A stretch of 64,000 nucleotides of DNA. Source: an uncultured Alphaproteobacteria bacterium. GTDB lineage: Bacteria; Pseudomonadota; Alphaproteobacteria; Rs-D84. The notes beneath the pieces were generated by a model, which searched no databases, had not been told where the DNA came from, and saw only the letters and a list, made by a program, of their open reading frames with translations. The stretch lies in NCBI GenBank assembly GCA_949878575.1, contig CATLAX010000002.1, positions 357,634-421,633 on the forward strand, given 5' to 3'. The first letter of the stretch is position 1. Every line of letters begins with the position of its first letter. The position numbers were made by a program, and so were the translations under genes. Below are positions 4,273 through 45,689 of this stretch, piece by piece.

Positions 4273-5328
4273 AAAATTATAAACAGATATTTTTTGCGCC
4301 AACTGCTGATGGTGTTTGTGATGCTGCTGTTGGTTCTGACAGGACTGGCATGGATGGTGCAGATTATGTCCATGATGAAATTCCTGTTAAACTATGGGAT
4401 ACAGTTAACAAACTTTCTGGGGCTAACCATGCTAATGGTGCCTTTTATAGTATCCATCATCGTGCCGTTTGTTACATTTATCGCAATCATTTTTGTATAC
4501 AACAAGATGATCTCTGACAATGAAATAACCGTCATGGCCGCGTCCACACTGTCGCCGCGGCAACTGGCGCGGCCGGCATTGATTCTGGCGGCTGTGATGG
4601 CGGCGGCCCATTTTGCGCTAAACATGTGGGTCGTGCCGGCGTCCCAGGCGCGTTTTTACGACACCCAGTGGAATCTGCGCTATGGGCTGGCCCACATGAA
4701 ACTGCAGGAATCGGCCTTTACGGAAATGTCTGACGGTCTGGTTGTGTACGTGGACAAGGTGTCCGGCCATGATTTAAGCCAGGTAATGCTGTCGGACACG
4801 CGCGATGAAAACAACCAGATAACTATATTCGCCGAAAAGGGCAAGCTGGTGTCAACCGCGCGCGGTCTGTCCATAGTGATGACAAACGGTTCGTTAATGG
4901 CGTCCGGCGGCGCGACAACCGTCGGAACGTTTGAAAGTTTTGACATGGATTTAAATGTCGCGGACAAGGGCGGCGGCGGAAATTTCCGCGTGCGCCGCGT
5001 ACCGACGACGGAACTGTTGAAAACGCTGTTTGACGCGCCGAGCGAAAAACAGCACAAGGCGGTATTGTCGGAATTATCAACCCGCCTGTACAGCCCGGTT
5101 ATGAACCTGGTGCTGGCGGCGCTGTGCGCGGTTGTGCTGCTGCGTTCGTCGCTGCTGCGGCGCCGGGCCAGCTTTGCGCCGGCGGTGGCGGTTCTGGCCA
5201 TGGCGGTTGTAATGGCGGCGTTCATGTCTGCATCAAACATGGTGTCGTCTGTGACACAGTTTGTGGTGCTGGGGGCGGCAATCGGGTTGCTGTTGGCGGG
5301 AATATTGACTGTACTGTATAAAAAATGA
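4273..5328 (+). CDS. LPS export permease, LptF/LptG (YjgP/YjgQ) family
   Basis: MKIINRYFLRQLLMVFVMLLLVLTGLAW… typical LptF/LptG N-terminus, multiple TM helices; stop overlaps lptD start (ATGA). Start chosen at internal Met 4273; ORF opens at 4234. Confidence 0.8.
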   Translation, partial: KIINRYFLRQLLMVFVMLLLVLTGLAWMVQIMSMMKFLLNYGIQLTNFLGLTMLMVPFIVSIIVPFVTFIAIIFVYNKMISDNEITVMAASTLSPRQLARPALILAAVMAAAHFALNMWVVPASQARFYDTQWNLRYGLAHMKLQESAFTEMSDGLVVYVDKVSGHDLSQVMLSDTRDENNQITIFAEKGKLVSTARGLSIVMTNGSLMASGGATTVGTFESFDMDLNVADKGGGGNFRVRRVPTTELLKTLFDAPSEKQHKAVLSELSTRLYSPVMNLVLAALCAVVLLRSSLLRRRASFAPAVAVLAMAVVMAAFMSASNMVSSVTQFVVLGAAIGLLLAGILTVLYKK

Positions 5329-7340
5329 GAAAGACAAAATTTCTTTTTCTTGCATGTGTTTTGCCCACCGCCGCGGCGGCCGCCACCAGTGCGTTGAACG
5401 AACCGAAAACCATAATCGCTGACAAAATAGAATACGATATAAAATCCGAATCAATACAGACATCCGGCAAGACGGAAATTATAAACCAGTCGGGCCAGCG
5501 CATGACACTGCGCGACAGTTATATTTCCAAAGACGGCAGCGCGCTGGAAGGCGACGACATAAAACTGTGGCTGGGGCGGCACGTGTATCTGGATGCAAAA
5601 ACAGTTACCCGCGACGGCGACATAACAATAGCCAAGGACGCCACGTTCACCGCATGCGACGGATGCGATCCGTACGGGAACGCATGGACTATATCCGCCA
5701 CAACCGTGCGCCACAACATGGCGACAAGAATGCTGCGCTTTTACAATCCGGTGTACTGGATTTACAATGTTCCCGTATTCTGGTTTCCGATATTTGAAAT
5801 GCCGGATCCGGGGGTTAAGCACAAAACCGGATTTTTAATGCCTGACTTTGAATCCACCAACAAAATGGGCACGATGATAAACATACCTTTTTATGTTTAT
5901 CTGTCAGAAACCCAGGATTTAACAGTAACACTGGCATATTTAACCCAGGAGAACCCGCTGTTTAAGCTGGAACATCGTTTAAACGGCGAACATTCCCAGT
6001 ACCGCACACGCGGTTCTTTTACGCGCAACAAGGACGGCGACAACCGCTGGCACATATTTAACAACGATGTGATAGAGCTCGGCGAATACGCGCGCGCGAC
6101 AGTATTTTTAGAGCGGACATCGGACAAGACGTACCTGCAGAAATACGGTTTTTACAATTCACAGCCCTATCTTGATTCAGGCGGCCGCCTGGAACTGTTC
6201 GGGCAATCCGGATATGTTGTCGCGGACGCGCACGTGTTTCAGGAACTGCGCAGCACGGGCGGCCGGTATTCCACCCCGTCCGGCGACATTTTGCCAAACA
6301 TACGCGGCGTTTATCAGTCGGCCCCGATATACGAGGAAACATACCTGACATTCAACGCTGACGTTTTGGGCATATCGGGTTCCGGCACCGCGTCACAGCG
6401 TGTTGTCGGCGATGCGCGCATAACGTCACCGTGGACGCTGTGGGGTGGCAACCGCATCACGGCCAGTATGTCCGCCCGTTACGACGTATACAATTTTGAT
6501 CACGCCGAAATGGTTGACGGTCAGAAGTTCACGGGACTAAAAAACAGATTCCTGCCCAGCGGATATTTGGAATGGGGGCTGCCGCTGTACAGGCCGGCTA
6601 CCACATGGACCCAGGTAATAGAGCCCCGCGCGCGCATCACCGCAATGCCCCACACGTCCAAGGACCAGTTTGCGTTAAACAATGATTCCGCGGGCGCGTT
6701 TCTGTCTGACGCGACACTGTTTTCGGACAAGCGTTTTGCGGGGCTGGATCTGTGGGAAAACGGAAACTTTGCCGATTACGGCGTACGCTGGGCCGCGTTT
6801 AACAACATCAGCGGCAAAACGTTTGAAGTGTTTGCGGGCCAGTCCTATGATTTCACAGACCGTGCGGACACGGACCCCAACAGCGGATTTCACAACGGCG
6901 CATCCGACTATGTCGGCCGCATCGGTTACAACAACATGAAATGGTTTGACATTTCATCGCGCTTTCGCCTGGACAGGACGGATCTGTCACTGCGGCACAT
7001 GGAAACAACCGGCCGCATCGGCAGTGCCGGAACATACCTGTCACTGGGGCATATATGGTCACAACGCTTCATAGACGCCCAGACACTGGGCGACGACACA
7101 AACGAGGCGACAGTCGGCGCGGGATTAAAACTGACTGACAGATGGGCGCTGCAGTGGAACGGCATTTACAATCTGACGGCGGACGAATTCCACAGCCATA
7201 CGGGCGGGATATTCTATACGCATCCGTGCTATTACATGTCGTTGCAGTACCGGCGCGACAATTCCATCAAAGAAGACTATGTCGGAACGACCACGTTCCA
7301 GTTCAGATTCGGAATGAGTATTGACGGCCAGCATTATTAA
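5325..7340 (+). CDS. lptD: LPS-assembly outer membrane protein LptD (OstA)
   Basis: 671 aa, signal peptide, OstA-like N-terminal domain (IIADKIEYDIKSE…TGKTEI…), large beta-barrel, aromatic C-terminal region; conserved lptF-lptD-surA order. Confidence 0.85.
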   Translation: MRKTKFLFLACVLPTAAAAATSALNEPKTIIADKIEYDIKSESIQTSGKTEIINQSGQRMTLRDSYISKDGSALEGDDIKLWLGRHVYLDAKTVTRDGDITIAKDATFTACDGCDPYGNAWTISATTVRHNMATRMLRFYNPVYWIYNVPVFWFPIFEMPDPGVKHKTGFLMPDFESTNKMGTMINIPFYVYLSETQDLTVTLAYLTQENPLFKLEHRLNGEHSQYRTRGSFTRNKDGDNRWHIFNNDVIELGEYARATVFLERTSDKTYLQKYGFYNSQPYLDSGGRLELFGQSGYVVADAHVFQELRSTGGRYSTPSGDILPNIRGVYQSAPIYEETYLTFNADVLGISGSGTASQRVVGDARITSPWTLWGGNRITASMSARYDVYNFDHAEMVDGQKFTGLKNRFLPSGYLEWGLPLYRPATTWTQVIEPRARITAMPHTSKDQFALNNDSAGAFLSDATLFSDKRFAGLDLWENGNFADYGVRWAAFNNISGKTFEVFAGQSYDFTDRADTDPNSGFHNGASDYVGRIGYNNMKWFDISSRFRLDRTDLSLRHMETTGRIGSAGTYLSLGHIWSQRFIDAQTLGDDTNEATVGAGLKLTDRWALQWNGIYNLTADEFHSHTGGIFYTHPCYYMSLQYRRDNSIKEDYVGTTTFQFRFGMSIDGQHY

Positions 7341-7378
7341 GCCGTATATTAAAAGGAAACAGGAAAGAGGGAAACGAT

Positions 7379-8203
7379 ATGATAAAGAAGCTGTCTTGTG
7401 CAATATTAATGCTGGCCGCATTTACGGGCGCGCGCGCGGCAACGGTTGTTGCGACGGTCGGCGACACGCCGATTACGGATACGGACATAACGGCCCGGGT
7501 CAAGTTAATGGCGCGCCAGGGCCGTGCGCCGTCCGACAACAGACGCCAGGCGCTGCAGGGCATAATAGACGACAATGTAAAATTAAACTATGCAAAAAAC
7601 TTTAACGCGGTGCCGTCTGACGAAGATGTGCGCAAAGAATTAAAGCGCATGAACCTGGGCGACCTGTCGGCGTCAGAACGTGCGATGGCAATGTCCGCCG
7701 CGCGCGCCGAAATCGCATGGCAGGTGGTCGTCGCACGCACAATACTGCCGACGGTGTCCGCATCAAAAGAAGACATTGCGGCGGAACGGGCGGCACTGGC
7801 CGCGGCGCATGGCCTGCCGCTGGAAATGACGATTGTGCGCCTGGTTGACATACCGGACGATATTGCAAAAAAACTAACAAAACCAAAAAGCTGTGACGAT
7901 GCAATGGAAATGGCGCGCAAGCTGGGCGGGGCGCCGCAAAAGTTTACGGCCGTTCAATACGAACTGTCCGAAGACGTGCGCAAGCGTGTTTCAAATCTGC
8001 CGAAATTAACGTGGTCGCCGCGGGCGGACAATTCCGTACTGTTGGTGTGCGACACGAAAAAGACCAAGGAATACGGCGATTTGGACAAAATAATCAAACA
8101 GAACGCCATGTTCAAACAGGCGATGTTTATCGCCGACCAGCAGCTAAAACAGCTGCGCCGCAAGGCGGTGATTGTCATCAACGACGACAGGTATAAATTA
8201 TGA
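7379..8203 (+). CDS. surA: SurA-like periplasmic chaperone (N-terminal SurA domain only, no obvious PPIase domain)
   Basis: Signal peptide (MIKKLSCAILMLAAFTGARAA), SurA-N-like helical domain, position between lptD and rlmN; only 274 aa so likely a reduced SurA. Confidence 0.55.
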   Translation: MIKKLSCAILMLAAFTGARAATVVATVGDTPITDTDITARVKLMARQGRAPSDNRRQALQGIIDDNVKLNYAKNFNAVPSDEDVRKELKRMNLGDLSASERAMAMSAARAEIAWQVVVARTILPTVSASKEDIAAERAALAAAHGLPLEMTIVRLVDIPDDIAKKLTKPKSCDDAMEMARKLGGAPQKFTAVQYELSEDVRKRVSNLPKLTWSPRADNSVLLVCDTKKTKEYGDLDKIIKQNAMFKQAMFIADQQLKQLRRKAVIVINDDRYKL

Positions 8204-9315
8204 AACCGATTTTGTTTAATTTCAACGATGCCGAACTGGCGGCATTCGTAACAAACATGGGGCTGCCGAAATTTCGTGCGGCCCAAATTCGCGAATGGCT
8301 GCGGCGCGGCGCGCCTGATTTTGGGGCAATGAAAAACCTGCCGGCGGAATTGCGTCGCGATTTGGACGCCACTGCCCGGACGCTGCCGGTGCGGATTTTG
8401 CGGCGGCTGGATTCCACGGATGGTGAAACGACAAAATTTCTGCTGGAATTAAACGACGGCGAACAGATTGAATGCGTGTTAATGCGCACGACGTACGGCA
8501 ACAGCGTCTGCGTCAGTTCACAGGCCGGATGCGCCATGGGGTGCAAATTCTGCGCCAGCACTCTGCTGGGGCTGAAACGCAATTTAAGCGCATCGGAAAT
8601 CATGGCCCAGGTCTTGGTCGCCCAATGGGAACTGCGCCGCACACGCACGGACAAGACAGACGTACGTCCCAACGGGGACCCCAACAACGGCGATGTTTCC
8701 CATATTGTGATAATGGGTACGGGCGAGCCGTTGCAGAACACGGAAAACGTAATTGATTTCATAGAACGGGCCAACAGGGATTTGGGCATCGGATGGCGGC
8801 GCATCACGGTTTCAACGTGCGGCATTGTTCCGGGGATACGGCGGTTGATTGAATGGGGCCGGCCGATAAATCTGGCAATATCGCTGCATGCGCCGACAGA
8901 CGAGCTGCGCGGACAAATAATGCCCATAAACAACAAATACCCGCTGGCGGACGTACTGGCGGCGGCGGATGAATTTACCGCCCTGCACAACCGGCAGTTA
9001 ATGATAGAATACATATTACTGGGGCGGAAAAATTCCGACGGTGAAACGGAACTGTTCAACGCAACGCCACAGCATGCGGAAATGTTAAGCCGCCTGCTGG
9101 CCGGGAAAAACTGCATGGTGAACCTGATACCGTGGAACGCGGTTGACGAGCGTGATTTTGCGTCACCGTCCGGCAACGCCGTCCACAGATTTCAAGACAT
9201 ATTAATAAAAAACGGAATACATACGCGCATACGCCGCGAACGCGGCACTGACATCGGCAGTGCATGCGGCCAACTGCGCCTAAACAATGCAAAAAACAAA
9301 GGAAACAAGAAATGA
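8200..9315 (+). CDS. rlmN: 23S rRNA/tRNA (adenine-C2)-methyltransferase RlmN (radical SAM)
   Basis: CVSSQAGCAMGCKFCAST radical-SAM cysteine motif, RlmN-typical length and motifs; ATGA overlap with surA stop. Confidence 0.9.
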   Translation: MKPILFNFNDAELAAFVTNMGLPKFRAAQIREWLRRGAPDFGAMKNLPAELRRDLDATARTLPVRILRRLDSTDGETTKFLLELNDGEQIECVLMRTTYGNSVCVSSQAGCAMGCKFCASTLLGLKRNLSASEIMAQVLVAQWELRRTRTDKTDVRPNGDPNNGDVSHIVIMGTGEPLQNTENVIDFIERANRDLGIGWRRITVSTCGIVPGIRRLIEWGRPINLAISLHAPTDELRGQIMPINNKYPLADVLAAADEFTALHNRQLMIEYILLGRKNSDGETELFNATPQHAEMLSRLLAGKNCMVNLIPWNAVDERDFASPSGNAVHRFQDILIKNGIHTRIRRERGTDIGSACGQLRLNNAKNKGNKK

Positions 9316-9596
9316 CAATATACGAAAATCAATTAAAGTATCTGATACAGGACATGCACCGTATCGCGCATATCCGCGGGTTTAGCGATGCATTGCTGAT
9401 GCCGTTGGAATGGCGGCCGGCGGGCGGCATGACGCTGCTGCATGAATATGCGAACGGTGGCGCCGTTCTGGCCCCGGGCACGCACAGAACAACGATGAAT
9501 GATTTTATAAACGCATTCGGCGGATATATTGATGAAGAAAGCAACCTTAAATATTCCGCTGTCGCACAGCACGCACTACAAAGACTGGGGCGCTGA
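9312..9596 (+). CDS. Hypothetical protein (94 aa)
   Basis: ORF MTIYENQLKYLIQDMHRIAHIRGF…; start trimmed to the ATG overlapping rlmN stop; no recognisable family. Confidence 0.4.
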   Translation: MTIYENQLKYLIQDMHRIAHIRGFSDALLMPLEWRPAGGMTLLHEYANGGAVLAPGTHRTTMNDFINAFGGYIDEESNLKYSAVAQHALQRLGR

Positions 9597-9700
9597 TTAA
9601 AACAAATCCGCTTATGATTTATATAACACACCATAAATGCGGCCGGTTCGGTTATAATAAAGCGTTTGCAATATTGTTACCAGCGGATGCGTACGGAAAT

Positions 9701-9733
9701 AAAAAAATCCCCCGTTTGGGGGATTTTTTATTT
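9701..9733. terminator. Bidirectional rho-independent terminator (AAAAAAATCCCCCGTTTGGGGGATTTTTTATT)
   Basis: Perfect 8-bp GC stem with A-run upstream and T-run downstream; lies between convergent ORF 9312-9596 (+) and the HTH gene (-). Confidence 0.6.
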
Positions 9734-9952
9734 CCAGTACCGTAACAATTCCGGCGCCCACATCTGGATAACGCGGTATACCTGATACGGGGTCGGCGCA
9801 ATGCGCCCCTTTTCCATTTCATAGTACGCAATGCCGTGCACACCTATCTGGCGTCCGGCATGAAACGGGCTTAGTTTTGACCGGCGGCGGATTTTGTGCA
9901 TCCACAGCCCCAGGCTTTTATAAAATTCTTGTTCCGATTGTAATTTTTTCAT
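9728..9952 (-). CDS. Small XRE/Cro-type helix-turn-helix DNA-binding protein, copy 1 of a duplicated module
   Basis: 74-aa protein MKKLQSEQEFYKSLGLWMHKIRRRSKLSPFHAGRQIGVHGIAYYEMEKGRIAPTPYQ… with HTH_XRE-like signature (…Q..G…I..YE.G…P). The first ATG-GAG-GA of the tool ORF is better read as the GGAGGA RBS for the second ATG. An identical protein is encoded at 45239-45463. Confidence 0.7.
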   Translation of the reverse strand: MKKLQSEQEFYKSLGLWMHKIRRRSKLSPFHAGRQIGVHGIAYYEMEKGRIAPTPYQVYRVIQMWAPELLRYWK

Positions 9953-10169
9953 TTTTTCCTCCATGGTTTTTAGTTAATAAAAACACCGCCGTGATGAAAG
10001 GCGGTTGGAGGTTGATTACTACGAAAACGATAGTGCTGCTTATTCATATATATCACAGCCCTCCAACCAATTATGGAGTTAAAAAATGTTTTCAGAGGTA
10101 ATCACACCTCACACCGGTAATCGTCCGATGCGATAAAAACTATATCAAAATAAAATTAATATATGCAAA

Positions 10170-10200
10170 TAAAATCCCCCGTTTGGGGGGATTTTTATTA
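10170..10200. terminator. Hairpin terminator nearly identical to the one at 9701-9733 (AAAATCCCCCGTTTGGGGGGATTTTTATTA); terminates the large cysteine-rich gene
   Basis: Same GC stem/loop sequence as 9707-9724, A/T-run flanks; immediately after stop of ORF 10198-13686 (-). Confidence 0.55.
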
Positions 10201-13200
10201 GTCGGTCAGGGCCGTATCAATCAAATCGCCGTATTGCCCGACCATTTCGTTGCCGACCATACAGTTTAGATGGTTACCGACATCGGCCATAAAGGCGTCA
10301 TAGGCTTCTTTTTCAACCTTGTCCAGTTTGGCATCCTGGACGCTTTTGGTCGCCTGGTACGTCAGTATTCCACCAGCGGTGGCTGTAACCGCGCCACCAA
10401 CCAGATTTGTTATAGAACGGTTTCTGGCCGCTTTCTTTTTAGCGTCTTCATCGGGCTCCGCACTCAAACACGCCGCATGCAGTTTTTGCATAGCCGCATT
10501 AGCTGCCTTTTGCGCATCTTCAACAGCCTTTGACTTGGTGTTATAAGTTTTGTTCATCTCCGCCAAATTATCGTTATACGCTTTTACACTATCAGCATCA
10601 CTTTCGCATATCGAATATGTATACTGTACATCTGTCACATCCGAACGATCACAATCATCTGTTAAAGATATAGGTGTTCCTCTATGGTTCTTACAATTTT
10701 CAGGTTCGCCTTTTTTAAATTTAGCTCCACACGCAAACATACATGTTGTTTCTATCAGTGTAACTGTTTTGCCCGGATTTATAGCTTTTATTGTTGCTAT
10801 TCTGCGCGGATCTTGCAACGAAGTACAATTATCTGTTACGGTTTTTTCCTTGTCGGTTACAGCCGCCGGCATATCAGAAACAGCATTTTGATAGGCTATA
10901 TGTTTGTCGGTCACCTCACTGATAAGATCGGACATTTCCTCCTTTGCATCCCCTTTATTTTTGGAATACAGGTCTTTCAATTCACGGGCAGCTTTTACTG
11001 CACGAGTCATATAGGCGGATCTGTCTTCTGCCTTTGTTGATGTCATATAATTTGATGCGGCTGTTGTACATCTATTTACAATGTCACCGGCATCTTTAAT
11101 AGATGTGCTACCGTTTGTCCCCAGCAAACCGCCCAAGAAACCGCTGTTCTGCATTTTGTCCGTGGCAAAGCCACCCAGAACGCCGCTGCCAACCACGCCA
11201 GCCAGTGTCGTCCATGCTCTGGTGCGGCTGTTACCGCGGGCCGCATCACTGCGCGCGTCATCCGCAACCGAATTCGCCAGTTTTTCCAGCGCATCACCCG
11301 GTATCCATGAACCGCATGTAAACGCATCACCCGCCGCAAAGTATGCCGTTGACCAGTCAGAGCCCTTTGCTATAACGTCTTGGATCCGTTTGTCATCGGA
11401 CTGCAGCGTTACACGCACACGGCAGAACGATCCGTATATATCATTGCTGGCCGCGAACTGGTTCGGTTTCAGACCGGATACCGCATAACCCTTTGGCACC
11501 GTGTTTGATTTCAGCTTTACCCACAGGAACGTGCTGCCCAAATCATTTTTGCCCAGGATGCCGCCGTTGTTTGACGACATGCACTTGTTCTGTTCGCGTG
11601 TTAATTTCGCGTTGTACTTTGCCTGAGCCTCTTTTTCCAAATCATAAATCAGGTCTTTGAACAACGTGGACGCCGCCTGGGTTTCAACATACGTTGTGTA
11701 TGAAATCATCACAGGCTGGTCATAAATATTGCCCGCGGCATCAACCGTATAGCACACGCCCTGATCCGTGCCACCCTTTGACGTGCACAGCGCGTTGCCG
11801 TTTTCATCCACTGCCGCAACCTGTTCCGTGTTGGCGGTGATTGCCGTCGCGGCGCCGGCGTCAATCCAGCCTTCGCGTACGTTGCCGGCCCCGCCCCAGC
11901 TGGATGCGGACGAATTGTTCGCAATTTTCAACTTGTTGCGTTCAATGGCCAAATGTTCTTCGCATACTGACGCGGATTTTACCGTATCCAGGCACAGGCC
12001 AAGAACGATTGTGTAATCCAAAACGCCGCCCACCTTGTTCATGGATTTGTCAAAAGACGCCTCGCCGGTGTTGGTCAATGAAGAATACACATCCGTACGG
12101 TTACGATAGCAGTTCTGGTAATCCGCACCGCACATTGATTTTACGCAAGATGTCGCAACCGCCTGGCACTGGCGCTTCATCGTGGCGATGGCCGCGTCGC
12201 TGTAACTGCTGGCCAGGGTGGCGTTCAATGACGCAATCACGCCGATTGGGTCGTTGCCGCCTTCCTCATACTCAGGGAACAGCGTCGTAAACGCATCGTT
12301 GTTTATATATGTATAAGAATAGCTGCCCGTCTTGTTCGGGTTCGCCGCCGCATACTTGCAGTATGCGTCCGTGTTTACGACCGCCTCGCACCCGGTTTTC
12401 AATTCCGCGTACGTGGCGCTGTTGTTAATGGATTTGTCCTTGTTGCCGAACACCTGGCTGTAACAGGCCGCGCCGGAACCGGAACCGCAGATGCGCATTA
12501 CGCATGTCTTTATCGTGTCCGTGCATTTTTCCTTTGCCTTGGTGTCAAACTTGTCAACCAAATCGGCGATTTTTGCACGCATACCGGCATTCATGCGGGC
12601 GGCGTACGCCTCGTCGTAAATTTCTTCCTGATTATCCTCATCCTTTAACTGGGACGATGTCGGCATCTGGCCGTTGCCCAGAAACGTCGCATAGCAATAT
12701 TTGTTTGAACCGATTGTATCCATACAGGAATTCTTGATATATCCCGCGATGCTGGATTTGGATATAATATCCGTTCCAGCCAGCGACACCGGCAGGGCCG
12801 CAGTGCTTTCCGCCGTTGCGACGCCCTGATTAATTGACTCTACCAGGCTAACCGTCGTGGTTGTGCTGTTTTCATAGCATTTGTACGGATTTGTCGCACA
12901 CGCGTTCAAGATACACTGGTCAACAACCTTGTAACATGTTGAAACGGCGTTAACCGCGGCCAGCGCCGCGCCCTCTGCAATCATTTCGCCGATGCGCGAC
13001 GTGGCGGACGGCGTTGTGGACGTGTTCGCGGAACCGAACAGCTCAATCAATCCCTCTGACTGGCAGCGGGCCAGTGTGGAATCACAAAACACGCGCTGCT
13101 TTCTAAATTCCTTGTCCGTGGTACATAATTCAAAATCATTCCCGCAGACACTGTCCTTCTTTAAACATGCGGTATAGCGTTTTACACATGTGGACGTGTC

Positions 13201-13686
13201 GTATTTGTTGGATATGGCCGCACCGATAATTAACTGGCCCAGAACACTGCCGTCGGTCGGGTATGTGTAATCCGTAACCTCGCCATAACTGTTTTTAGAC
13301 GCAACCGTGGACAGCGCCGTGACAGTTCCCGTTCCAAACAGGCTGGATACTCCGGCGGTGCTGCACTGGGCCAGCGTGGACAAACACTGCGGCATTTTGC
13401 CGTGGAACAAAACCTTGGTCGTGCATTCTTCAAAGTCAGAGCCGCATGCGTCCCCACCCTTCATACAATTCGTGTACGCGTCAATGCACTCTGCATTCGC
13501 CAACAGGTTTGACGTCGTTGTCGTGGTGCCGCTGGTACTGGTGCCGGCGCCGGTAATGTATGACGTCATTGTCGGCATGCGCGACGACGCGGTGCCAATA
13601 ACACTGGGCCGCGCGGTCAGTGCATAAGATGCCTGAACCGTTGTCAAAACAGCCAGAAAACCAAACGATTTTGTAAAGAGACTCAT
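10198..13686 (-). CDS. Large (1162 aa) secreted cysteine-rich repeat protein, function unknown (candidate surface/adhesin or effector protein)
   Basis: N-terminal signal peptide (MSLFTKSFGFLAVLTTVQASYA), S/T-rich stretch, then two clear ~60-aa six-Cys repeats (C-x4-T-x-C-x6-C-x3-FE-x-CTT…C-x-STLA-x-C…LFG) and further paired-Cys modules; C-terminal Gly/Ala-rich hydrophobic segment. Confidence 0.7.
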   Translation of the reverse strand: MSLFTKSFGFLAVLTTVQASYALTARPSVIGTASSRMPTMTSYITGAGTSTSGTTTTTSNLLANAECIDAYTNCMKGGDACGSDFEECTTKVLFHGKMPQCLSTLAQCSTAGVSSLFGTGTVTALSTVASKNSYGEVTDYTYPTDGSVLGQLIIGAAISNKYDTSTCVKRYTACLKKDSVCGNDFELCTTDKEFRKQRVFCDSTLARCQSEGLIELFGSANTSTTPSATSRIGEMIAEGAALAAVNAVSTCYKVVDQCILNACATNPYKCYENSTTTTVSLVESINQGVATAESTAALPVSLAGTDIISKSSIAGYIKNSCMDTIGSNKYCYATFLGNGQMPTSSQLKDEDNQEEIYDEAYAARMNAGMRAKIADLVDKFDTKAKEKCTDTIKTCVMRICGSGSGAACYSQVFGNKDKSINNSATYAELKTGCEAVVNTDAYCKYAAANPNKTGSYSYTYINNDAFTTLFPEYEEGGNDPIGVIASLNATLASSYSDAAIATMKRQCQAVATSCVKSMCGADYQNCYRNRTDVYSSLTNTGEASFDKSMNKVGGVLDYTIVLGLCLDTVKSASVCEEHLAIERNKLKIANNSSASSWGGAGNVREGWIDAGAATAITANTEQVAAVDENGNALCTSKGGTDQGVCYTVDAAGNIYDQPVMISYTTYVETQAASTLFKDLIYDLEKEAQAKYNAKLTREQNKCMSSNNGGILGKNDLGSTFLWVKLKSNTVPKGYAVSGLKPNQFAASNDIYGSFCRVRVTLQSDDKRIQDVIAKGSDWSTAYFAAGDAFTCGSWIPGDALEKLANSVADDARSDAARGNSRTRAWTTLAGVVGSGVLGGFATDKMQNSGFLGGLLGTNGSTSIKDAGDIVNRCTTAASNYMTSTKAEDRSAYMTRAVKAARELKDLYSKNKGDAKEEMSDLISEVTDKHIAYQNAVSDMPAAVTDKEKTVTDNCTSLQDPRRIATIKAINPGKTVTLIETTCMFACGAKFKKGEPENCKNHRGTPISLTDDCDRSDVTDVQYTYSICESDADSVKAYNDNLAEMNKTYNTKSKAVEDAQKAANAAMQKLHAACLSAEPDEDAKKKAARNRSITNLVGGAVTATAGGILTYQATKSVQDAKLDKVEKEAYDAFMADVGNHLNCMVGNEMVGQYGDLIDTALTD

Positions 13687-13712
13687 TCTGCTCGCTCCAT
13701 ATTTTATATTTT

Positions 13713-13741
13713 ATTATATCATATAAAAGAGACGCAGACAA
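13713..13741 (-). promoter_or_regulatory. Candidate sigma70-type promoter for the cysteine-rich gene (TTGTCT-17-TATAAT on minus strand)
   Basis: Read on the minus strand: -35 TTGTCT, 17-nt spacer, -10 TATAAT, about 30 nt upstream of the ATG at 13686. Confidence 0.3.
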
Positions 13742-13767: not shown

Positions 13768-14730
13768 TTATTCACCGTCATCCAGCACGGCGCGCAACGT
13801 CGCCATGTCATCCGGCAACGCGGCGCGGAAACGCATGGGCGCACCGCTGACGGGATGTGCAAATTCCAAAATTTCCGCATGCAGCATCTGGCCGTTGTGT
13901 TCGCGTAAAAATTCCAGCAGTTCCGGATTTTTCACCGTACCCAGTCGTGAGGCTCCGCGCCCGTAGAGCGGATCGCACAGCACCGGGAAACCGTGCGCGG
14001 ACAAATGAACGCGTATCTGGTGAGTGCGCCCTGTAAACAGCGTGCAACGCAGCGCCGCCACGCCCGCGCGCGGCCACACGTCCATTACGTTTACAGCCGT
14101 ATGCGCATCGCGGCCGCCTGTCTTTACCATGCTCATTTTCTGGCGGTTGCGTGACGAGCGCGCAATATTGCCGGTAATGTCCGCCCCGGTCCAGTTCGGC
14201 ACCCCCCATACAAACGCGACATATTTTCGCGTTAAATCGTGTGTGGAAAAAGTCTTTACCAAACCGCGGAACGCAGCATCAGATTTTGCAAAGACCATGA
14301 CACCGCTGGTGTCCTTGTCCAGCCGGTGCGCAACCCCCGGACGCGTCACCCCGCCAAGCGGCGACAACGGCGTGTGTGCCAGTATGTTCTGAACCAGCGT
14401 CCCGGTCTTGTTCCCGGCGGACGGATACATGACAACCCCGCGCGGCTTGTTCACGACGATGATATCGTCATCCTCGTACAAAATGTCCAAATCAAAATCG
14501 CTGGATATATTCTCAGACGCCACATCGGACGCACGGGCGGGCGGAATTTCAACAACAAATGTGTCGCCGGGGCGAACCTTGTCCGAAAAACGCACCTGGC
14601 GACCGTCGCGCGTTACAGAAAAACGCTGAATCTCGCTGCGCGAAAATTCCGGCATCTGGGCCGCCAAAAACTTGTCCAGACGCACACCCGCGGACGCAGA
14701 ATCCACTAAAAATTCACGAACATTTGTCAT
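13768..14730 (-). CDS. rluD: 23S rRNA pseudouridine synthase, RluA family (RluD/RluC-like)
   Basis: S4-like N-terminal domain then RluA-family catalytic motif (GVAHRLDKDTSGVMVFAKS); 320 aa. Confidence 0.85.
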   Translation of the reverse strand: MTNVREFLVDSASAGVRLDKFLAAQMPEFSRSEIQRFSVTRDGRQVRFSDKVRPGDTFVVEIPPARASDVASENISSDFDLDILYEDDDIIVVNKPRGVVMYPSAGNKTGTLVQNILAHTPLSPLGGVTRPGVAHRLDKDTSGVMVFAKSDAAFRGLVKTFSTHDLTRKYVAFVWGVPNWTGADITGNIARSSRNRQKMSMVKTGGRDAHTAVNVMDVWPRAGVAALRCTLFTGRTHQIRVHLSAHGFPVLCDPLYGRGASRLGTVKNPELLEFLREHNGQMLHAEILEFAHPVSGAPMRFRAALPDDMATLRAVLDDGE

Positions 14731-15203
14731 TTATAACTGTCCCAATCCGGCCCGCGCGTACATTTTGACATGTCTATGACGAAATCACGTTCACCCGTCA
14801 CCGGACAGGTTAAGACGCCTTCTGTGGCGGCCTCGTCCGCGTTGCGGGCGGCGTTGCGCCATGCAAACCGAATTTCCGTCGGCGCATGAACGCATGCGAT
14901 GCGCAAATTCCCGTCATGCTGGCCCGGGCGCGGCCCCAACCATACGCGCACAGACCCGCCCAGGCCATAGCACGGAAAACCGTCCAGATAATACAGAACC
15001 AGACCGCGCCCGATTATCTTGTTGTTATTTGCATACTTAAATTCCCCGCGGTATTCATGCAGCGACAGGCCCGTTACCGCCTGCCAGTCGGTACTGGTGG
15101 AAAAAACGCTGATACGCGGGGCGGGCGCCGGGGCGTTTGCACACAGCGCGGGCGACGCCGCAAGAACAGAACACAACAGGGCGGAACAAATTTTTTTCAT
15201 CAT
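14727..15203 (-). CDS. Hypothetical secreted protein (158 aa, signal peptide)
   Basis: MMKKICSALLCSVLAASPALCA signal peptide; 4-nt overlaps with the genes on both sides (translational coupling). Confidence 0.5.
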   Translation of the reverse strand: MMKKICSALLCSVLAASPALCANAPAPAPRISVFSTSTDWQAVTGLSLHEYRGEFKYANNNKIIGRGLVLYYLDGFPCYGLGGSVRVWLGPRPGQHDGNLRIACVHAPTEIRFAWRNAARNADEAATEGVLTCPVTGERDFVIDMSKCTRGPDWDSYK

Positions 15204-15718
15204 TGCATATCCGTTTGGTCTTTTAGTTCAACAGTTATTTTTTTCACCCCGTCCGTCGGCGCGGACAGGGTATGCGAAAAATCAACGGACGCGCCGGAAT
15301 CCAGCAACGTTGCAGACGGCATGAATTTCTGGCGTGCGATTTCCGCACCATCCGCGTCGCGTGAAACGATTATCAAATCCGGAACGCCATAAATATCAGC
15401 CGATCTGTTTGTCACGCGGCCGGAAACAACAAAATGCGCGGTGCCGGCCGCATCTATTACGGAACGGATTCCGGTCACAGTCGCAACCAGCGGTCGCGCC
15501 TCTTCCATTGCGCGCGCACGATGCCGCGCAACAACCGCCACGGAAAAAACTATCGCGGCCAACGCGGCCGTCGCCGCCGCAATCAGCATTAACCACGCAC
15601 CGCGGCGCCCGCGCGGAACCACCGTCCACGCGCGGCCGCACACCGCGCATTCAACACGCCCACGCACGGTCGCCGGCACACTGTATTCCGTTTTGCAAAA
15701 ATCACATGCTATCTTCAT
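15200..15718 (-). CDS. MJ0042-type zinc-ribbon plus DUF3426-like membrane protein
   Basis: N-terminal CxxC…CxxC zinc ribbon (MKIACDFCKTEYSVP…VECAVCGRAWTV), one TM helix, C-terminal beta-rich domain typical of DUF3426 proteins. Confidence 0.6.
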   Translation of the reverse strand: MKIACDFCKTEYSVPATVRGRVECAVCGRAWTVVPRGRRGAWLMLIAAATAALAAIVFSVAVVARHRARAMEEARPLVATVTGIRSVIDAAGTAHFVVSGRVTNRSADIYGVPDLIIVSRDADGAEIARQKFMPSATLLDSGASVDFSHTLSAPTDGVKKITVELKDQTDMQ

Positions 15719-15742
15719 ATTTACACCTTATACCACAAATGA

Positions 15743-17050
15743 CTATAAATTCAACCGGCGATATTTTGCACGGACTTTTTCCTGTATCTCGCTTATGGCG
15801 CGCATGTAATCCGCGGCGGTCGCGTTCTTGTTTGCCGCAACGGCCCCGAATATCTGCGCCGCCTGGGTGCCGGTGCCCTCGGCGGCGGACACGTACGGCA
15901 CCATGCGCCCCAGTTCGGACAAGGACAGGTCCAGAAAATTCGCCTTGCCGGCGGACGCATCCCAGTAATACTGTGAATTTACGGAATCTTCCAAACGCTT
16001 TTTTACAACCAGGCGCGGCGTAATTGAACCGGCAAACCCAACCGTTACAAACATTGCATCAATGCGTCCGTACGTCATGTCCAGCGTCTGATTTATTTTA
16101 AGCATGGCGACATCGCCGCCGTCATCAACGGACAGCCCCGCCAAAGTCATGTTTGTAACATACAGGTCGTCAACCGTCAGGCTTGAAAACTTTGCCGTAT
16201 CGGCCAAAGAGACATTGCCGGATATTTCCATGTTTTTGGAATCAGACGACAATGCGCCCGCAACGGTTGAAAACGACGCCGACAACTGCTTGTCAACAGA
16301 TGTTCGGTTTTGAAAAACAACCTTGTCCGCGACAATTTTTCCCACCCCCAGCGTTTCGTCAAAACTGATTGCGCGCCCGTTAACGAAAGCCCCGTCCAAA
16401 ATGTCATGTCCGCCCAAACTCAGCGCGGAGAGCATCGTCGCATCCGCACTGTCCGCGGACGGCACGCGCCACAGATACTTTGCATTGTCGCGCACAGCCC
16501 CGGTTGTTTCCACAATACCGTCCGCATCCGCCAACCCCAAATCCACCGTTGACGCGCGCCACGCGCCAAACGCCCCGTATGCGCGCCCGCGGTCCAAAAA
16601 TCCCATATTGTCGCCGCCCGTGTTTACAATTTCGCGCGTGCGCAGCGGACTGATTTTATCATCATTTAAAACAACCACGCCCTGCAACGTGGCAAGACCG
16701 CCGGCATCGGCCGATTTCAACACGCGCAGCTGGTATTCCGCGCCGCGCTGGGCGACCAGATCCGCCGACACGCCGTACGGCACCAAATCCGCCAGCGACA
16801 GGCGAACGATGTTTTTCCCGACCGGCGCCAGCAGTTCGTCGCGATTGGCGACAATATATCGTTCAAGCGCGGTCTGCACACCCTGCATCTGGCGCGTTAC
16901 GGCAACATTTTCCGCACGCCGCACCGCGTTTTCATGATATCTAAAAATGAACGGTATCACAATCATCGCCAGCGCAACGCTAAGCATCAGTTCAACCAGC
17001 ATTCCGCCCGCCTGATGCGGGGCGTTAAAAAACGTTTTTACTGTTTTCAT
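15743..17050 (-). CDS. Pilin-like paralog A: large protein with prepilin-type N-terminal hydrophobic helix
   Basis: Short basic leader ending in G-G then MLVELMLSVALAMIVIPFIF (class-III-signal-like, Glu near +5); a ~400-aa G/D/S/T-rich body sharing motifs with the next two genes; start chosen at Met 17050 (GGTGGAG RBS); ORF opens at 17080. Confidence 0.6.
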   Translation of the reverse strand: MKTVKTFFNAPHQAGGMLVELMLSVALAMIVIPFIFRYHENAVRRAENVAVTRQMQGVQTALERYIVANRDELLAPVGKNIVRLSLADLVPYGVSADLVAQRGAEYQLRVLKSADAGGLATLQGVVVLNDDKISPLRTREIVNTGGDNMGFLDRGRAYGAFGAWRASTVDLGLADADGIVETTGAVRDNAKYLWRVPSADSADATMLSALSLGGHDILDGAFVNGRAISFDETLGVGKIVADKVVFQNRTSVDKQLSASFSTVAGALSSDSKNMEISGNVSLADTAKFSSLTVDDLYVTNMTLAGLSVDDGGDVAMLKINQTLDMTYGRIDAMFVTVGFAGSITPRLVVKKRLEDSVNSQYYWDASAGKANFLDLSLSELGRMVPYVSAAEGTGTQAAQIFGAVAANKNATAADYMRAISEIQEKVRAKYRRLNL

Positions 17051-18242
17051 TGTCAAGCTCCACCCCGCCCCAGCCGGCATCGGTTATTTTTGAAAACTCA
17101 TTTTTTTTCACCGGCGCGGGATACTTTGCACGCTCTATGTTTAACTGTGAAAAACGTGGCGGCGTCGTGGACGGGAAAGTCCAACCACCGACCTTTAGCG
17201 GCGATTCCGTGGACATCAACAACTCGCCCGACAGAGTCAACCCGAAATTATCGTAAAAAACTATTTCATCCGCCGTAATAAACGGCGCCGCAACAGAACT
17301 AACAGAAATTCCGTCAAACCCGCTGATTGTGCGCGCAGTATCCGATTTTAAGGTCAAATCGCGCGCGACATTCACGCTGCGCCCAACGGTCGCACGGTCT
17401 GCAATTATCCGGCCGCGCGTCGTATAACCGCTGCCGTTTAACGTCTGGGCGGAAATGTTTTTAAACCCCGTCACGTCACCCGTAACACGCAGCGCCCCCA
17501 AATCCGCACGCCCGCCGTCAATGTTCGCACCGGACGAAAAATACGCGGCGTCCGCCATAACCTCCTGTGTTTCTATAAATGTGGCGGCGGCGGAATTTAC
17601 CTTTGCCGACTTTGCCGTAACGCCGCCAACATCGTAAACATTATGCCCGCCCATATTCAAATCGCGCATCATGACATTCAACATGTCTTCGCCGGACGTG
17701 CCGCGGTGCAGGTATTTTTCCGTGTCCATTCCGGAAACATCGCGCGACACCCTGTATATTATGTCGCCCGCGCTAAAATCAGGCGCCGTCACCGCCCATG
17801 ATGCGCCATACGCTATCCCATCAGATGCAACGACGGCCGCGTCAACCCCGATGCGCCGCGCAATATTTTCCGCACGCAGCACGTCACCACCGACATTAAA
17901 CGCCAGATACACATCCGTCACCGTCGCACCGGATACGGCATATTTGTCTATAAATCCGGCGACAGGCGCGCTTGAAATCATGGCCAAATCTTCGTCCGTC
18001 ATGCGAATCTGCGCCTCGTCCGGCCATGCGTCCGCATGCATGCGCACAAAGTTTAATGTGGCCCCGCGGACGTCAATTATATCTTTTGCCATTCGGGCAT
18101 CAGAGGCCATGCGCGCCGTCTGTAAAACCTGGCTGTATACGAACGGCGCGGCCATCGCAATTATGGCCATCGCCAACAGCACCTCCAGCATTCCGGCGCC
18201 GCATGATTCATCTTTAAAAATCAGCGTCTTACATGCAGCCAT
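17025..18242 (-). CDS. Pilin-like paralog B
   Basis: …ESCGAG-MLEVLLAMAIIAMAAPFVY N-terminus parallel to paralog A; shared internal motifs (DLNMGGHNVYDVGG etc.); overlaps upstream gene. Confidence 0.6.
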   Translation of the reverse strand: MAACKTLIFKDESCGAGMLEVLLAMAIIAMAAPFVYSQVLQTARMASDARMAKDIIDVRGATLNFVRMHADAWPDEAQIRMTDEDLAMISSAPVAGFIDKYAVSGATVTDVYLAFNVGGDVLRAENIARRIGVDAAVVASDGIAYGASWAVTAPDFSAGDIIYRVSRDVSGMDTEKYLHRGTSGEDMLNVMMRDLNMGGHNVYDVGGVTAKSAKVNSAAATFIETQEVMADAAYFSSGANIDGGRADLGALRVTGDVTGFKNISAQTLNGSGYTTRGRIIADRATVGRSVNVARDLTLKSDTARTISGFDGISVSSVAAPFITADEIVFYDNFGLTLSGELLMSTESPLKVGGWTFPSTTPPRFSQLNIERAKYPAPVKKNEFSKITDAGWGGVELDNENSKNVF

Positions 18243-19584
18243 CTCGTCCTTCCATCAAGCACTGTTTTATGTCTATCCTTTGTTCCAGACGATGCCAGTA
18301 GACATACTGGCAAATTATGTACTGCGACAGGCTGCGCTGATTATAATTGCCGTCCAAATCGGAAATCACATCCTTGCAGTCAACCATTTTCCCGGTATTG
18401 TCGGCCGGATCCGCAATAATTTCAAACGCACCGTTGTCAATGCCGTCAACGTACACGTCCGGCAGCACGGACGTCCCCGCCGGCCGCAAATCCAAAATAA
18501 CAGCACCTGTCCCCCCCGCCAGCAGCGCATCGGACGTCTGGTCCCGCATGGTGACATTTGACGCGACAAGGGTGTCCGTTTCCAGGCCGCTGCGCGAACT
18601 GTATTCCAATTCATCCGGACTGATGTAAACATCCTGGCCGCGGGCGGCGTTTATGTACGACGACACGTCCAGGCGTTCAACGGAAAAGTTCACACGGTCC
18701 GCCACGACATTCCCGCGCACATTCCATTTGCCGGGTCCGTTAAACCCCGTGCGACCGGACGTCATGGCAAAATCATAAACGGACGCCGCGCCGGCCACAA
18801 AATTACCAGTATCACCGAAACGCGCAATCGTGCGCGCATCCAGTCCGGACGCCGTCAAATTTCCCCGCGCCAGTGTCAGCGCCGCCTCGCCGGTGCGGCT
18901 TTGAAATATGGCGCGGTTCGCGGTCAGGCTGTCTATCTTGTTTTTTATTTTGCGCCCGTTTTCAGCCCCCGTCACAGACAGCGTGCCCGCCGTCATCGTA
19001 TCAAACACGCCGCGGCGCGCAACCACGGCACCGGCATTGTCAAGCACGAACCCGCCCATGTTTAAGTCCGTTAAGAAAGCCCCGGCGTCAATATCCGTTT
19101 CGTTACGGCGGACAACGTCAGAGAACCCATCGTCCAGGGCGATGCCGACACTGACCACGTCGCCGGATGCGTCCGCGTAAAAACCGATGCGCCGCGCCAG
19201 TTCCGCACGCGCCACCCCGGACAGATCGCCGCCGGACAGTTCCAGACGCGCCGATATTTCCGCATCGGTCTTGTTTATGACCAGCGCAATATCCTGGCCC
19301 AGCGCCGTGCGCGGCACAAACCCCAGCGGCAGGCCGTACGGTTCCAGCAAATCTGCAAAGTCATCACCCGTGACAACGGTTGTGTCATACCGGATATGGC
19401 GCGCGTTTTCACGAATAAAAATTCGCGCGGCGGTTGCGGCGACATCAACCTGGCGCGTGGTGGAATACATCTGGGCATCCCTGTCACCAACCGCCAGACG
19501 GGATGCAAAAAACGGAATAAACGCAAAAACCAGGGCCAGCGCCAGCAATGCCTGCAATAAAAAATTTCCGCTTTGCCTGGACAA
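18229..19584 (-). CDS. Pilin-like paralog C
   Basis: MSRQSG-NFLLQALLALALVFAFIPFF (6-aa leader ending in G, as in the type IV pilin at 21708); internal motif DLNMGGFVLDNAG shared with paralog B. Confidence 0.6.
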   Translation of the reverse strand: MSRQSGNFLLQALLALALVFAFIPFFASRLAVGDRDAQMYSTTRQVDVAATAARIFIRENARHIRYDTTVVTGDDFADLLEPYGLPLGFVPRTALGQDIALVINKTDAEISARLELSGGDLSGVARAELARRIGFYADASGDVVSVGIALDDGFSDVVRRNETDIDAGAFLTDLNMGGFVLDNAGAVVARRGVFDTMTAGTLSVTGAENGRKIKNKIDSLTANRAIFQSRTGEAALTLARGNLTASGLDARTIARFGDTGNFVAGAASVYDFAMTSGRTGFNGPGKWNVRGNVVADRVNFSVERLDVSSYINAARGQDVYISPDELEYSSRSGLETDTLVASNVTMRDQTSDALLAGGTGAVILDLRPAGTSVLPDVYVDGIDNGAFEIIADPADNTGKMVDCKDVISDLDGNYNQRSLSQYIICQYVYWHRLEQRIDIKQCLMEGRDGCM

Positions 19585-21688: not shown

Positions 21689-21707
21689 CTTCATGGAGGA
21701 AAAACAT

Positions 21708-22166
21708 ATGCGGCAGGAATCGGGACGTTCTTTGATAGAAATAATCGGAATAATGGCCATCGGCGCCATCATGACGGCCAGTGCGGTTTCACTTTACAAC
21801 ATGATACGCGGCAACCAGACACGCCGCATCGCCGCCGCCGAAATGCAGCAGATTGTCCGCGACACGCGCATGCTGATGGAAATGCGCGGCGACTATACCG
21901 GAATTTCCGTAGACTATCTGATTAAGGCCGGCGCATTAAAATCAGATGCGGCACCGCTGGGCGGGGCCTGGTCCGTCACCGCCGAAGAAGGCGGAAAAAA
22001 ATTTGCAATAAATTTAACCGCGCTGTCGGCGGGCGAATGCGATTACTTTATAACCGCCGCGCCCGCATGGGCGGCCCAGATTCGCGTAAACGGCATGCCG
22101 GCGGATTCCACCACCAGCAACTGTTTCTCGTCACGCACAAACGAAATATCCTTTATAGCGGAATAA
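21708..22166 (+). CDS. Type IV pilin / pseudopilin (class III signal peptide)
   Basis: MRQESG|RSLIEIIGIMAIGAIMTASAVS: 6-aa leader, Gly-1, Glu+5, hydrophobic helix; GGAGG RBS 8 nt upstream of the ATG at 21708; C-terminal Cys pair. Confidence 0.75.
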   Translation: MRQESGRSLIEIIGIMAIGAIMTASAVSLYNMIRGNQTRRIAAAEMQQIVRDTRMLMEMRGDYTGISVDYLIKAGALKSDAAPLGGAWSVTAEEGGKKFAINLTALSAGECDYFITAAPAWAAQIRVNGMPADSTTSNCFSSRTNEISFIAE

Positions 22167-45213: not shown

Positions 45214-45220
45214 AAAAATC

Positions 45221-45250
45221 CCCCGAACGGGGGATTTTTTATTTCCAGTA
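45221..45250. terminator. Bidirectional terminator (AAAAAAATCCCCCGAACGGGGGATTTTTTATT); a loop variant of the 9701-9733 hairpin
   Basis: Same stem as copy 1 with a different loop; lies between infC (+) and HTH copy 2 (-). Confidence 0.6.
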
Positions 45251-45463
45251 CCGTAACAATTCCGGCGCCCACATCTGGATAACGCGGTATACCTGATACG
45301 GGGTCGGTGCAATACGCCCTTTTTCCATTTCATAATACGCAATGCCGTGCACACCTATCTGGCGTCCGGCATGAAACGGGCTTAGTTTTGACCGGCGGCG
45401 GATTTTGTGCATCCACAGCCCCAGGCTTTTATAAAATTCTTGTTCCGATTGTAATTTTTTCAT
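45239..45463 (-). CDS. Small XRE-type HTH protein, copy 2 (identical protein to 9728-9952)
   Basis: Identical 78/74-aa translation; nt identity about 97-98% including about 200 bp of 5' leader. Confidence 0.7.
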   Translation of the reverse strand: MKKLQSEQEFYKSLGLWMHKIRRRSKLSPFHAGRQIGVHGIAYYEMEKGRIAPTPYQVYRVIQMWAPELLRYWK

Positions 45464-45689
45464 TTTTTCCTCCATGTTTTTTTAACTAAAAACACCGCCG
45501 TGATTAAAGGCGGTTGGAGGTTGATTACTACAAGATAATAGTGCTGTTTATTTATGTATATCACAGCCCTCCAACCGGTTGTGGAGTTTTTATATCTTGG
45601 AGGTAATCACACCTCACACCGGTAATCGTCCGGTGCGATGCGAATTATACCGGATTATTTTCGTGTTTGCAAATAATTACTGGATTGCC

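Follow-up and report, generated by a model that had tools for sequence, protein, structure and literature searches.

A constant cysteine-rich scaffold carrying a recombining hypervariable cassette: a candidate surface protein family of uncultured gut Alphaproteobacteria

The stretch analysed here, referred to throughout as the window, comprises 64,000 nucleotides from an uncultured alphaproteobacterium of the order Rs-D84 (assembly GCA_949878575.1, contig CATLAX010000002.1), and its longest open reading frame (ORF), on the minus strand at 10198-13686, encodes the protein of 1162 amino acids (aa) which is the subject of this report. The protein has two parts with opposite evolutionary histories; a cysteine-rich scaffold under very strong purifying selection, and a hypervariable cassette which is exchanged by recombination, both between strains of one species and across species, and whose tip is diversifying. 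The cassette lies between two glycine-rich segments, and it was this decisive feature that was missed in an earlier reading made from the letters alone (the sequence-only reading), where the cysteine-rich repeats were likened to those of extracellular adhesins and toxins; far from being a fast-evolving, adhesin-like part, they are conserved more strongly than any other part, without a nonsynonymous change in 800 codons relative to a sister strain. The favoured, though tentative, interpretation (a probability of roughly 0.45) is that of a surface recognition or attachment protein in which the constant scaffold carries a variable stalk-and-tip head.

The division into constant and swapped parts was defined by comparison with a sister strain, represented by the contig encoding P0002 (L081), and with the closest allele, P0001. 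The DNA of the two strains is 97.5% identical over 8.5 kb spanning the scaffold and the upstream genes, all nucleotide similarity is lost over window positions 10438-11123 (residues ~855-1083), and the DNA of the tail is 90% identical. At the protein level, residues 23-822 are 100% identical, compared with 25% for residues 859-1085. Codons 1-800 of this pair carry 38 synonymous and no nonsynonymous changes, set against 27 synonymous and 8 nonsynonymous in the adjacent RluD-like gene; the scaffold has accumulated fewer amino acid changes between strains than a neighbouring gene for ribosomal RNA (rRNA) modification.

The comparison with P0001 separates the two parts in the same way. The scaffold shows 41 synonymous and 6 nonsynonymous changes, giving a ratio of nonsynonymous to synonymous substitution rates (dN/dS) of 0.04, whereas the cassette tip (residues 937-1029) shows 2 and 21 respectively, a dN/dS of about 3.1. 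The synonymous rate (dS) is 0.31-0.35 in glycine-rich segment 1 (11113-11220) and in residues 1086-1162 (10201-10431), four to five times the 0.075 found in the scaffold, which indicates a mosaic history for the gene, with recombination breakpoints that seem, from the sequences, to fall in or near the glycine-rich segments. Nine of the eleven groups with scaffolds at least 98.5% identical hold between two and four cassette types, and cassettes are common to different species whose scaffolds are 78-82% identical (in one example the scaffolds are 81% and the cassettes 88% identical). A search for silent cassette copies, covering the window and up to 10 kb on from the gene in ~90 related loci, found none. 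The cassette is among the clearest strain-level variable cassettes, and it is the organisation of a constant scaffold and a swappable head that makes the finding more than that of a plain repeat protein.

The features of the gene and its product are as follows.

10198-13686, minus strand: coding sequence, 1162 aa, stop codon included (ORF list and homologues)
13713-13741, minus strand: promoter-like site, TTGTCT-17-TATAAT with a preceding TG (consensus match only, 10 of 12 positions)
13695-13698, minus strand: putative ribosome-binding site GGAG, 8 nt 5' of the ATG (read from the sequence)
13621-13686, minus strand: signal peptide, residues 1-22, cleavage expected after ASYA (n/h/c layout, small residues at -3 and -1)
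13564-13617, minus strand: mature N-terminal motif TARPSV...RMPTM, residues 24-41 (near-invariant to invariant in alignments)
13507-13554, minus strand: Ser/Thr-rich linker TGAGTSTSGTTTTTSN, residues 45-60 (sequence)
13216-13506, minus strand: six-cysteine helical module 1, residues 61-157, C67/74/81/88/101/108 (helical in AlphaFold2; tandem duplicate of module 2)
12964-13215, minus strand: six-cysteine helical module 2, residues 158-241, C167/174/181/188/201/208 (cysteine pattern, conservation, profile comparison)
11887-12963, minus strand: six-cysteine modules 3-5, residues 242-600, all helical (cysteine pattern and invariance; weak profile similarity of the four-cysteine motif)
11221-11886, minus strand: beta-rich domain with one long helix, residues 601-822, C634/645/702/755/791 (AlphaFold2)
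11113-11220, minus strand: glycine-rich hydrophobic segment 1, residues 823-858 (composition; hhalign similarity to segment 2)
10432-11112, minus strand: hypervariable cassette, residues 859-1085, a four-helix-bundle stalk with bracketing conserved C873 and C1073
10600-10878, minus strand: cassette tip subdomain, residues 937-1029, three strands and one helix (AlphaFold2 secondary structure)
10351-10431, minus strand: glycine-rich hydrophobic segment 2, residues 1086-1112 (composition; hhalign similarity to segment 1)
10201-10350, minus strand: conserved C-terminal tail, residues 1113-1162, invariant C1142 (alignments)
10165-10191, minus strand: intrinsic terminator, a GC-rich hairpin (CCCCCCAAACGGGGG) followed by a T run (sequence reading)

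The ORF is a single real gene. A full-length parse was obtained for 151 family members, all of which have the same landmarks as the 1162-aa protein, and since the scaffold is in addition under strong purifying selection, the fusion of several smaller genes, a worry raised in the sequence-only reading, is ruled out. That reading had also given the gene its own promoter and terminator, in agreement with the promoter-like consensus match and with the terminator hairpin, which lies immediately 3' of the stop codon (10191-10176).

An alignment of 121 sequences follows the same plan, with residues ~51-822 highly conserved, a collapse of conservation and frequent insertions and deletions over residues ~859-1085 and a recovery over the last ~60 residues; the cassette itself ranges from 90 to 280 residues in length across the family. 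Residues 23-822 and the final 50 residues thus make up one nearly unchanging scaffold. At the N-terminus, both the signal peptide and the Ser/Thr linker described earlier are borne out by the sequence layout and the homologues. The layout of MSLFTK, hydrophobic core and ASYA|L, as read from the sequence and alignment, is kept in homologues, the length of the linker differs among them, and the TARPSV...RMPTM motif between the two can still be discerned in distant family members.

Cysteines account for 44 of the residues (3.8%). The two tandem six-cysteine modules picked out in the sequence-only reading were recovered with their cysteines spaced exactly 100 residues apart (hhalign profile-profile probability 99.2%, E 1.9e-19); distant family members have only one copy of the duplicated module, with the rest of the architecture whole. 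Its suggestion that paired-cysteine modules continue throughout held in part; there are three more six-cysteine sets, in a 4+2 layout (251/258/263/270+321/331, 388/395/400/408+433/443 and 507/514/519/526+565/575), which have little in common with modules 1 and 2 beyond the cysteine pattern (profile comparison E 1e-3 to 0.02), but the regular modules end near residue 800. Each of the 35 cysteines up to residue 791 is conserved in 99-100% of the 121 aligned sequences, and family-wide, at a mean identity of 28%, the invariant columns are almost all cysteines.

The cysteine counts follow a parity. In 146 of the 151 full-length members the mature scaffold has an odd number (31-39), the cassette an even number (2-10) and the tail a single one. 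The cassette count taken alone is even in 147 of the 151 and itself varies widely, and because it varies and yet remains even, the simplest reading would be that every cysteine is disulfide-bonded. By the same counts C873 and C1073 would pair to close the base of the cassette, the remaining cassette cysteines, of which the tip of this strain has six extra, would pair internally, and the odd scaffold cysteine would have the tail cysteine C1142 as its partner. This parity argues that scaffold, cassette and tail all fold in an oxidising compartment outside the cytoplasm; together with the conserved signal-peptide layout, it is what was found in support of placing the protein among exported, disulfide-bonded proteins.

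The Gly/Ala-rich stretch which the protein was earlier said to end in proved to be one of two such segments (~823-858 and ~1086-1112), the second of which is followed by the conserved 50-residue tail. Segment 1 has 34% glycine, a mean hydropathy of 0.97 and a basic N-terminal flank with a mean net charge of +2.3, and contains a charged residue in 34 of the 121 sequences. The corresponding values for segment 2 are 26% glycine, a mean Kyte-Doolittle hydropathy of 1.55 and a flank of +1.2, and it is free of charge in 120 of the 121. The two segments are similar to one another (hhalign E 1.6e-6), a score which their glycine-rich composition may inflate.

Structure prediction with AlphaFold2 gave a full-length model with a predicted local distance difference test score (pLDDT) of 65.7 and a predicted template modelling score (pTM) of 0.39. 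This model is helical throughout residues 60-590, mostly at a pLDDT of 70-90 but with stretches of low confidence (below 50 at residues 293-302 and 527-557, within modules 3-5), and has a beta-rich domain containing a single long helix at residues 610-800. A separate model of residues 596-1162 (pLDDT 69.9) gave mostly 85-93 for the beta-rich domain, a four-helix bundle for the cassette, largely above 90 with a less confident distal tip, and a tail of one helix and three short strands (88-91 over residues 1136-1155). Foldseek searches yielded nothing significant in the PDB (best E 0.34) or, for the C-terminal model, among the viral structures of BFVD (best E 0.06). Sequence-profile searches of the PDB with the whole family, the beta-rich domain and the helical region returned sub-threshold matches of coiled-coil type or none, and neither the beta-rich domain nor the helical region has a sequence relative there.

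The family to which the protein belongs is an orphan, specific to uncultured gut Alphaproteobacteria of Candidatus Enterousia/order Rs-D84. At least 914 homologues were found in an index of 5.8 billion proteins, none of them with a functional name or a Pfam domain, and those with a source name come almost entirely from uncultured gut "Alphaproteobacteria bacterium" genomes. An exhaustive profile search of 1.84 billion representatives recovered 264 clusters, all from the family itself, as would be expected from the earlier suggestion that the gene is lineage-specific, and searching again with a profile of its most divergent members led to no new family. When one genome per species was scanned, 192 stretches contained relatives; among the named records are Candidatus Enterousia and "uncultured Rickettsiales", from the gut of humans, mice, chickens and ruminants. 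Other metagenome-assembled genomes of Alphaproteobacteria or "Rickettsiales" are the source of the most divergent members. Searches of Pfam (E up to 1), NCBIfam, PHROGs and PADLOC gave no significant match and no catalytic domain, in line with the earlier failure to recognise a catalytic motif, tblastn found no match in phage and plasmid collections, and the match to a characterised family which the sequence-only reading had named as evidence against it was found in none of Pfam, NCBIfam and the PDB. This is a new protein family fitting a known functional theme, and neither sequence relatives nor significant fold matches were detected for it.

Uncultured bacteria of Rs-D84, or Candidatus Enterousia, are widespread in the gut of humans, livestock and insects. 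Their genomes, described as below about 1 Mb, with 0.7-1.6 Mb given for Rs-D84, lack the tricarboxylic acid cycle, respiratory chains and standard transporters, and dependence on partner organisms has been proposed for them (PMC12306168). Among the products encoded in the window are LptD-like, LptF/G-family, SurA-like, Skp/OmpH, BamB-like, OmpA-family and TolC-like (OEP) proteins, and the cell therefore has two membranes; RlmN, RluD-like and DnaX genes are also present.

On the favoured reading, the protein would be exported by the Sec pathway as an envelope protein built of constant and variable parts. Of its disulfides, some 18 would belong to the scaffold, counting the bond to the tail, another would close the cassette at its base, and the tip would have additional pairs. 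The glycine-rich segments would together serve as a membrane anchor, most likely in the outer membrane and probably as an oligomer, such that the constant scaffold is shielded in the periplasm or within a complex whilst the stalk and tip face the outside of the cell. An outer-membrane location fits best because the invariant and hypervariable parts contrast so strongly within one polypeptide and because disulfides are expected in both. The tip would then be the specificity determinant for a ligand on a partner cell or host, with recombination as the source of its variation and ligand diversity, phage or host immunity as the selective pressure, and the likeliest role would be cell-to-cell or cell-to-host attachment by a bacterium with a ~0.9 Mb genome and a proposed partner-dependent lifestyle. 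A bolder version of the recognition reading, which we regard as a long shot, is that the protein represents an unrecognised type of outer-membrane display device, with a disulfide-locked scaffold and tail in the periplasm, two glycine-zipper segments crossing the outer membrane, probably as an oligomer, and a recombining head outside which docks Rs-D84 to chosen partner cells. Of the earlier proposal of an adhesin or a toxin/effector, the candidate surface or interaction protein would still be the best description; the toxin/effector is without positive support.

A number of points weigh against the recognition reading, and it should be considered with caution. Surface location and interaction function are inferred, and the reading would require a route by which a folded head crosses the outer membrane. 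The dN/dS of the tip is taken from one sequence pair with 23 substitutions, and the counts of cassette diversity use representatives of 90%-identity clusters, which enriches divergent alleles. Segment 1 is weakly hydrophobic (mean 0.97) and charged in 34 of 121 sequences, the basic N-terminal flank on both segments misfits an antiparallel pair of inner-membrane helices and has no known meaning for the outer membrane, and both segments have a pLDDT below 40 in models with a pTM of ~0.4, so their topology is not captured by AlphaFold2. The gene neighbourhood is conserved within the Enterousia clade only, and distant members differ. A further point against is that these anaerobes are without respiratory chains (PMC12306168). 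Finally, the available data do not separate the recognition reading from the explanation to which we now turn.

The protein could instead be a structural envelope protein or dominant surface antigen without ligand binding, forming a layer like an S-layer or that of the chlamydial cysteine-rich proteins, with a cassette that varies only for escape from phage or antibodies. This is unlikely in our estimate, if the least so of the competing explanations. Conservation of the scaffold beyond that of a neighbouring housekeeping gene would suit packing in a lattice or with multiple partners, each Enterousia-clade locus examined has one family match and loci occur in 192 species genomes, the cysteine parity favours disulfides, and antigenic escape would likewise yield cassette swapping. 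However, no similarity to S-layer or chlamydial envelope families was found, and a conserved stalk and tip with a disulfide-closed base resembles a device for display rather than a passive loop. Placing the cysteine-rich domain and tail in the periplasm and the cassette in the cytoplasm, with the glycine-rich segments as transmembrane helices of an inner-membrane protein, would be the simplest Sec-dependent topology for a signal peptide and two hydrophobic segments, and segment 2 is transmembrane-like (charge-free, hydropathy 1.55, basic N-terminal flank). We nevertheless consider this very improbable, as the even cassette cysteines (147/151) and the bracketing pair point to disulfides, which are unexpected in the cytoplasm, wholesale replacement of the cassette and the nonsynonymous excess in the tip would be unusual for a cytoplasmic domain, and the basic N-terminal flank of segment 1 would face the periplasm.

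That the protein acts as a functional analogue of PilY1/PilC, exported and presented with a type IV pilus made up of the upstream-encoded pilin-like proteins, is improbable on the present evidence. It would be of similar size to PilY1 (~1160 aa with a signal peptide), its gene lies 3' of the pilin-like array on the same strand in 67-69 of 80 loci, and TcpQ and secretin genes lie directly 3' of one distant member. However, no Pfam match to the PilC/PilY1 domain was found, the gene has its own promoter-like site and is separated from the pilin-like genes by the RluD-like gene, other distant members have unrelated neighbours, and synteny in closely related reduced genomes is weak evidence. The pilin-like assignment itself comes from N-terminal motifs recognised by eye and a weak PilS match (E 0.006), with no support from Pfam or the PDB for the large ORFs. 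Least probable of all is a secreted membrane-inserting effector or toxin, either an alpha-helical pore former that would insert its glycine-rich helices into a target membrane, or a polymorphic toxin whose killing domain varies. There are weak PDB profile matches of residues ~944-1110 to XaxA/YaxA (E 0.05-0.09) and non-significant Foldseek matches to MakB and IpaD/SipD, glycine-zipper-like segments occur in some pore formers, and polymorphic toxins characteristically have a variable domain; yet every one of these matches misses the significance threshold, and no catalytic or toxin domain was found in Pfam, NCBIfam or PADLOC. Neither toxin class would be expected to have an ultra-conserved scaffold of 800 residues or a conserved tail after the variable part, the cassette model shows a simple helical bundle topped by a small tip, and between the two sister strains the cassettes differ but the downstream DNA is shared, leaving no space for an immunity gene.

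Among Enterousia-clade loci, 67-69 of 80 have the gene at the end of a same-strand array, the order being three prepilin-like ORFs of 405-451 aa, a Zn-ribbon/DUF3426-like membrane protein, a small secreted cysteine-rich protein, the RluD-like gene and the 1162-aa gene, with variable genes downstream. An operon link to the pilin-like genes held within this clade only and was unsupported in distant members, and the association with pilus genes is a lead rather than a conserved association. Prepilin-like N-termini (G, then M/N/R and a hydrophobic helix) are found in the three large ORFs (15743-19584, minus strand), which have the common motif L(N/S)(M/L)GG(H/F), and in a 157-aa ORF (21693-22166, plus strand) with the weak PilS match (E 0.006). 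The large ORFs have no match in Pfam, NCBIfam or PADLOC, and PDB searches with two of the neighbours gave nothing useful. The small secreted protein (158 aa, 14727-15203, minus strand) contains cysteines and a signal peptide, has no family match and keeps its position in 69 of 80 loci, and its gene overlaps the stop and start codons of its Zn-ribbon/DUF3426-like and RluD-like neighbours.

The sequence-only reading also linked the gene to a duplicated helix-turn-helix (HTH) module, a proximity which turned out to be coincidental. A 440-bp module occurs twice in the window (9696-10134 and 45207-45639, 92.7% identity) and contains a 78-aa, weakly HTH-like ORF, the protein of which is 100% identical between copies, and a CCCCCAAACGGGGG terminator hairpin. 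Since the sister strain and the other fetched loci that were searched all lack it, the module has the look of a small insertion particular to this strain, and the HTH ORF was rejected as a partner of the 1162-aa gene. Some 21 kb from the gene, among chromosomal housekeeping genes, is a gene for a VirD4/TraG-type coupling protein of type IV secretion (34516-36726, minus strand), the one type IV secretion gene seen, which suggests that the lineage has such a secretion system.

Further afield, in two divergent genomes, the family member is flanked by T7-like phage genes, at 5389-9935 and 14542-18959 in L084 and at 4939-9843 and 14635-18932 in L085; these are genes for terminase, portal/head-tail connector, lysozyme, Bbp19 and capsid, with a faint tail-tube match in L084 also. 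Genes for DnaB and other housekeeping functions are interspersed among them, the order being shared by the two genomes, and the region may be a domesticated phage-like element. The distant member followed directly by TcpQ and secretin genes (at 13832-16354) is that of L086. In L089 there are FtsQ/FtsA neighbours and two divergently transcribed paralogues, of 901 aa (6855-9560, minus strand) and 1137 aa (10001-13414, plus strand), whose first ~50 residues are identical and which diverge beyond; this pattern suggests gene conversion or recent duplication at their 5' ends.

The gene is thus a candidate determinant of partner or host recognition, and a candidate marker for strain typing and population genetic analyses of this lineage. 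Several known classes were considered and set aside. The ClyA/XaxA-type alpha-helical pore-forming toxins gave no significant sequence or fold match; in contrast to the CdiA/Rhs-type polymorphic toxins, the variable part lies inside the protein, ahead of a conserved tail, and the sister-strain comparison shows no co-varying immunity gene. Autotransporters and beta-barrels gave no Pfam or NCBIfam match, and the C-terminus (...ALTD) has no terminal aromatic residue, whilst the Sel1-like Hcp/EnhC type and chlamydial OmcB gave no Pfam match at E up to 1, nor any PDB relative of the helical region. PilY1/PilC proteins (PF05567), of ~1100 aa with a signal peptide, are part variable and part conserved and are encoded beside minor-pilin genes, and the protein resembles them in its large size, signal peptide, variable and conserved parts and upstream pilin-like ORFs; it differs in being cysteine-rich with hydrophobic segments, and there is no match to the PilC beta-propeller. 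With the glycine-zipper lipoproteins of the SlyB/Pcp type (PF05433 Rick_17kDa_Anti, PF13488 Gly-zipper_Omp) it has in common short uncharged segments of 26-34% glycine with GG-x6-GG spacing, which could pack as membrane-embedded helices. However, neither PF05433 nor PF13488 was matched at E up to 1, the protein is not a lipoprotein, and its two segments enclose a whole domain instead of forming a tight hairpin.

A likeness is also seen in the hypervariable domain of flagellin, VlsE/Vsp of Borrelia and the trypanosome VSG, in which a helical-bundle stalk is likewise formed from both sides of a distal hypervariable insert and alleles are exchanged through recombination. No homology to these was detected, there is no local reservoir of silent cassettes, and the variable part here makes up a small share of a protein that is otherwise much larger and invariant. 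In design, the protein comes nearest to TraN of the F-like plasmids (PF06986), an exported outer-membrane protein with ~22 conserved cysteines, all of which could form intramolecular disulfides, and with a conserved core and a variable tip that sets recipient/partner-cell specificity (PMC9246713). Membership of that family was rejected, as there was no Pfam match and an 83-sequence alignment of the present family scored a probability of 0.2% against F TraN with hhalign. TraN is also shorter (~600 aa) and mostly beta, compared with a helical scaffold and a helical-bundle stalk, and the 1162-aa gene is chromosomal, with RluD-like, RlmN and LptD-like neighbours and no F-type transfer genes. What the two have in common is a plan rather than ancestry: a constant base stapled by cysteines which carries a swappable recognition tip.

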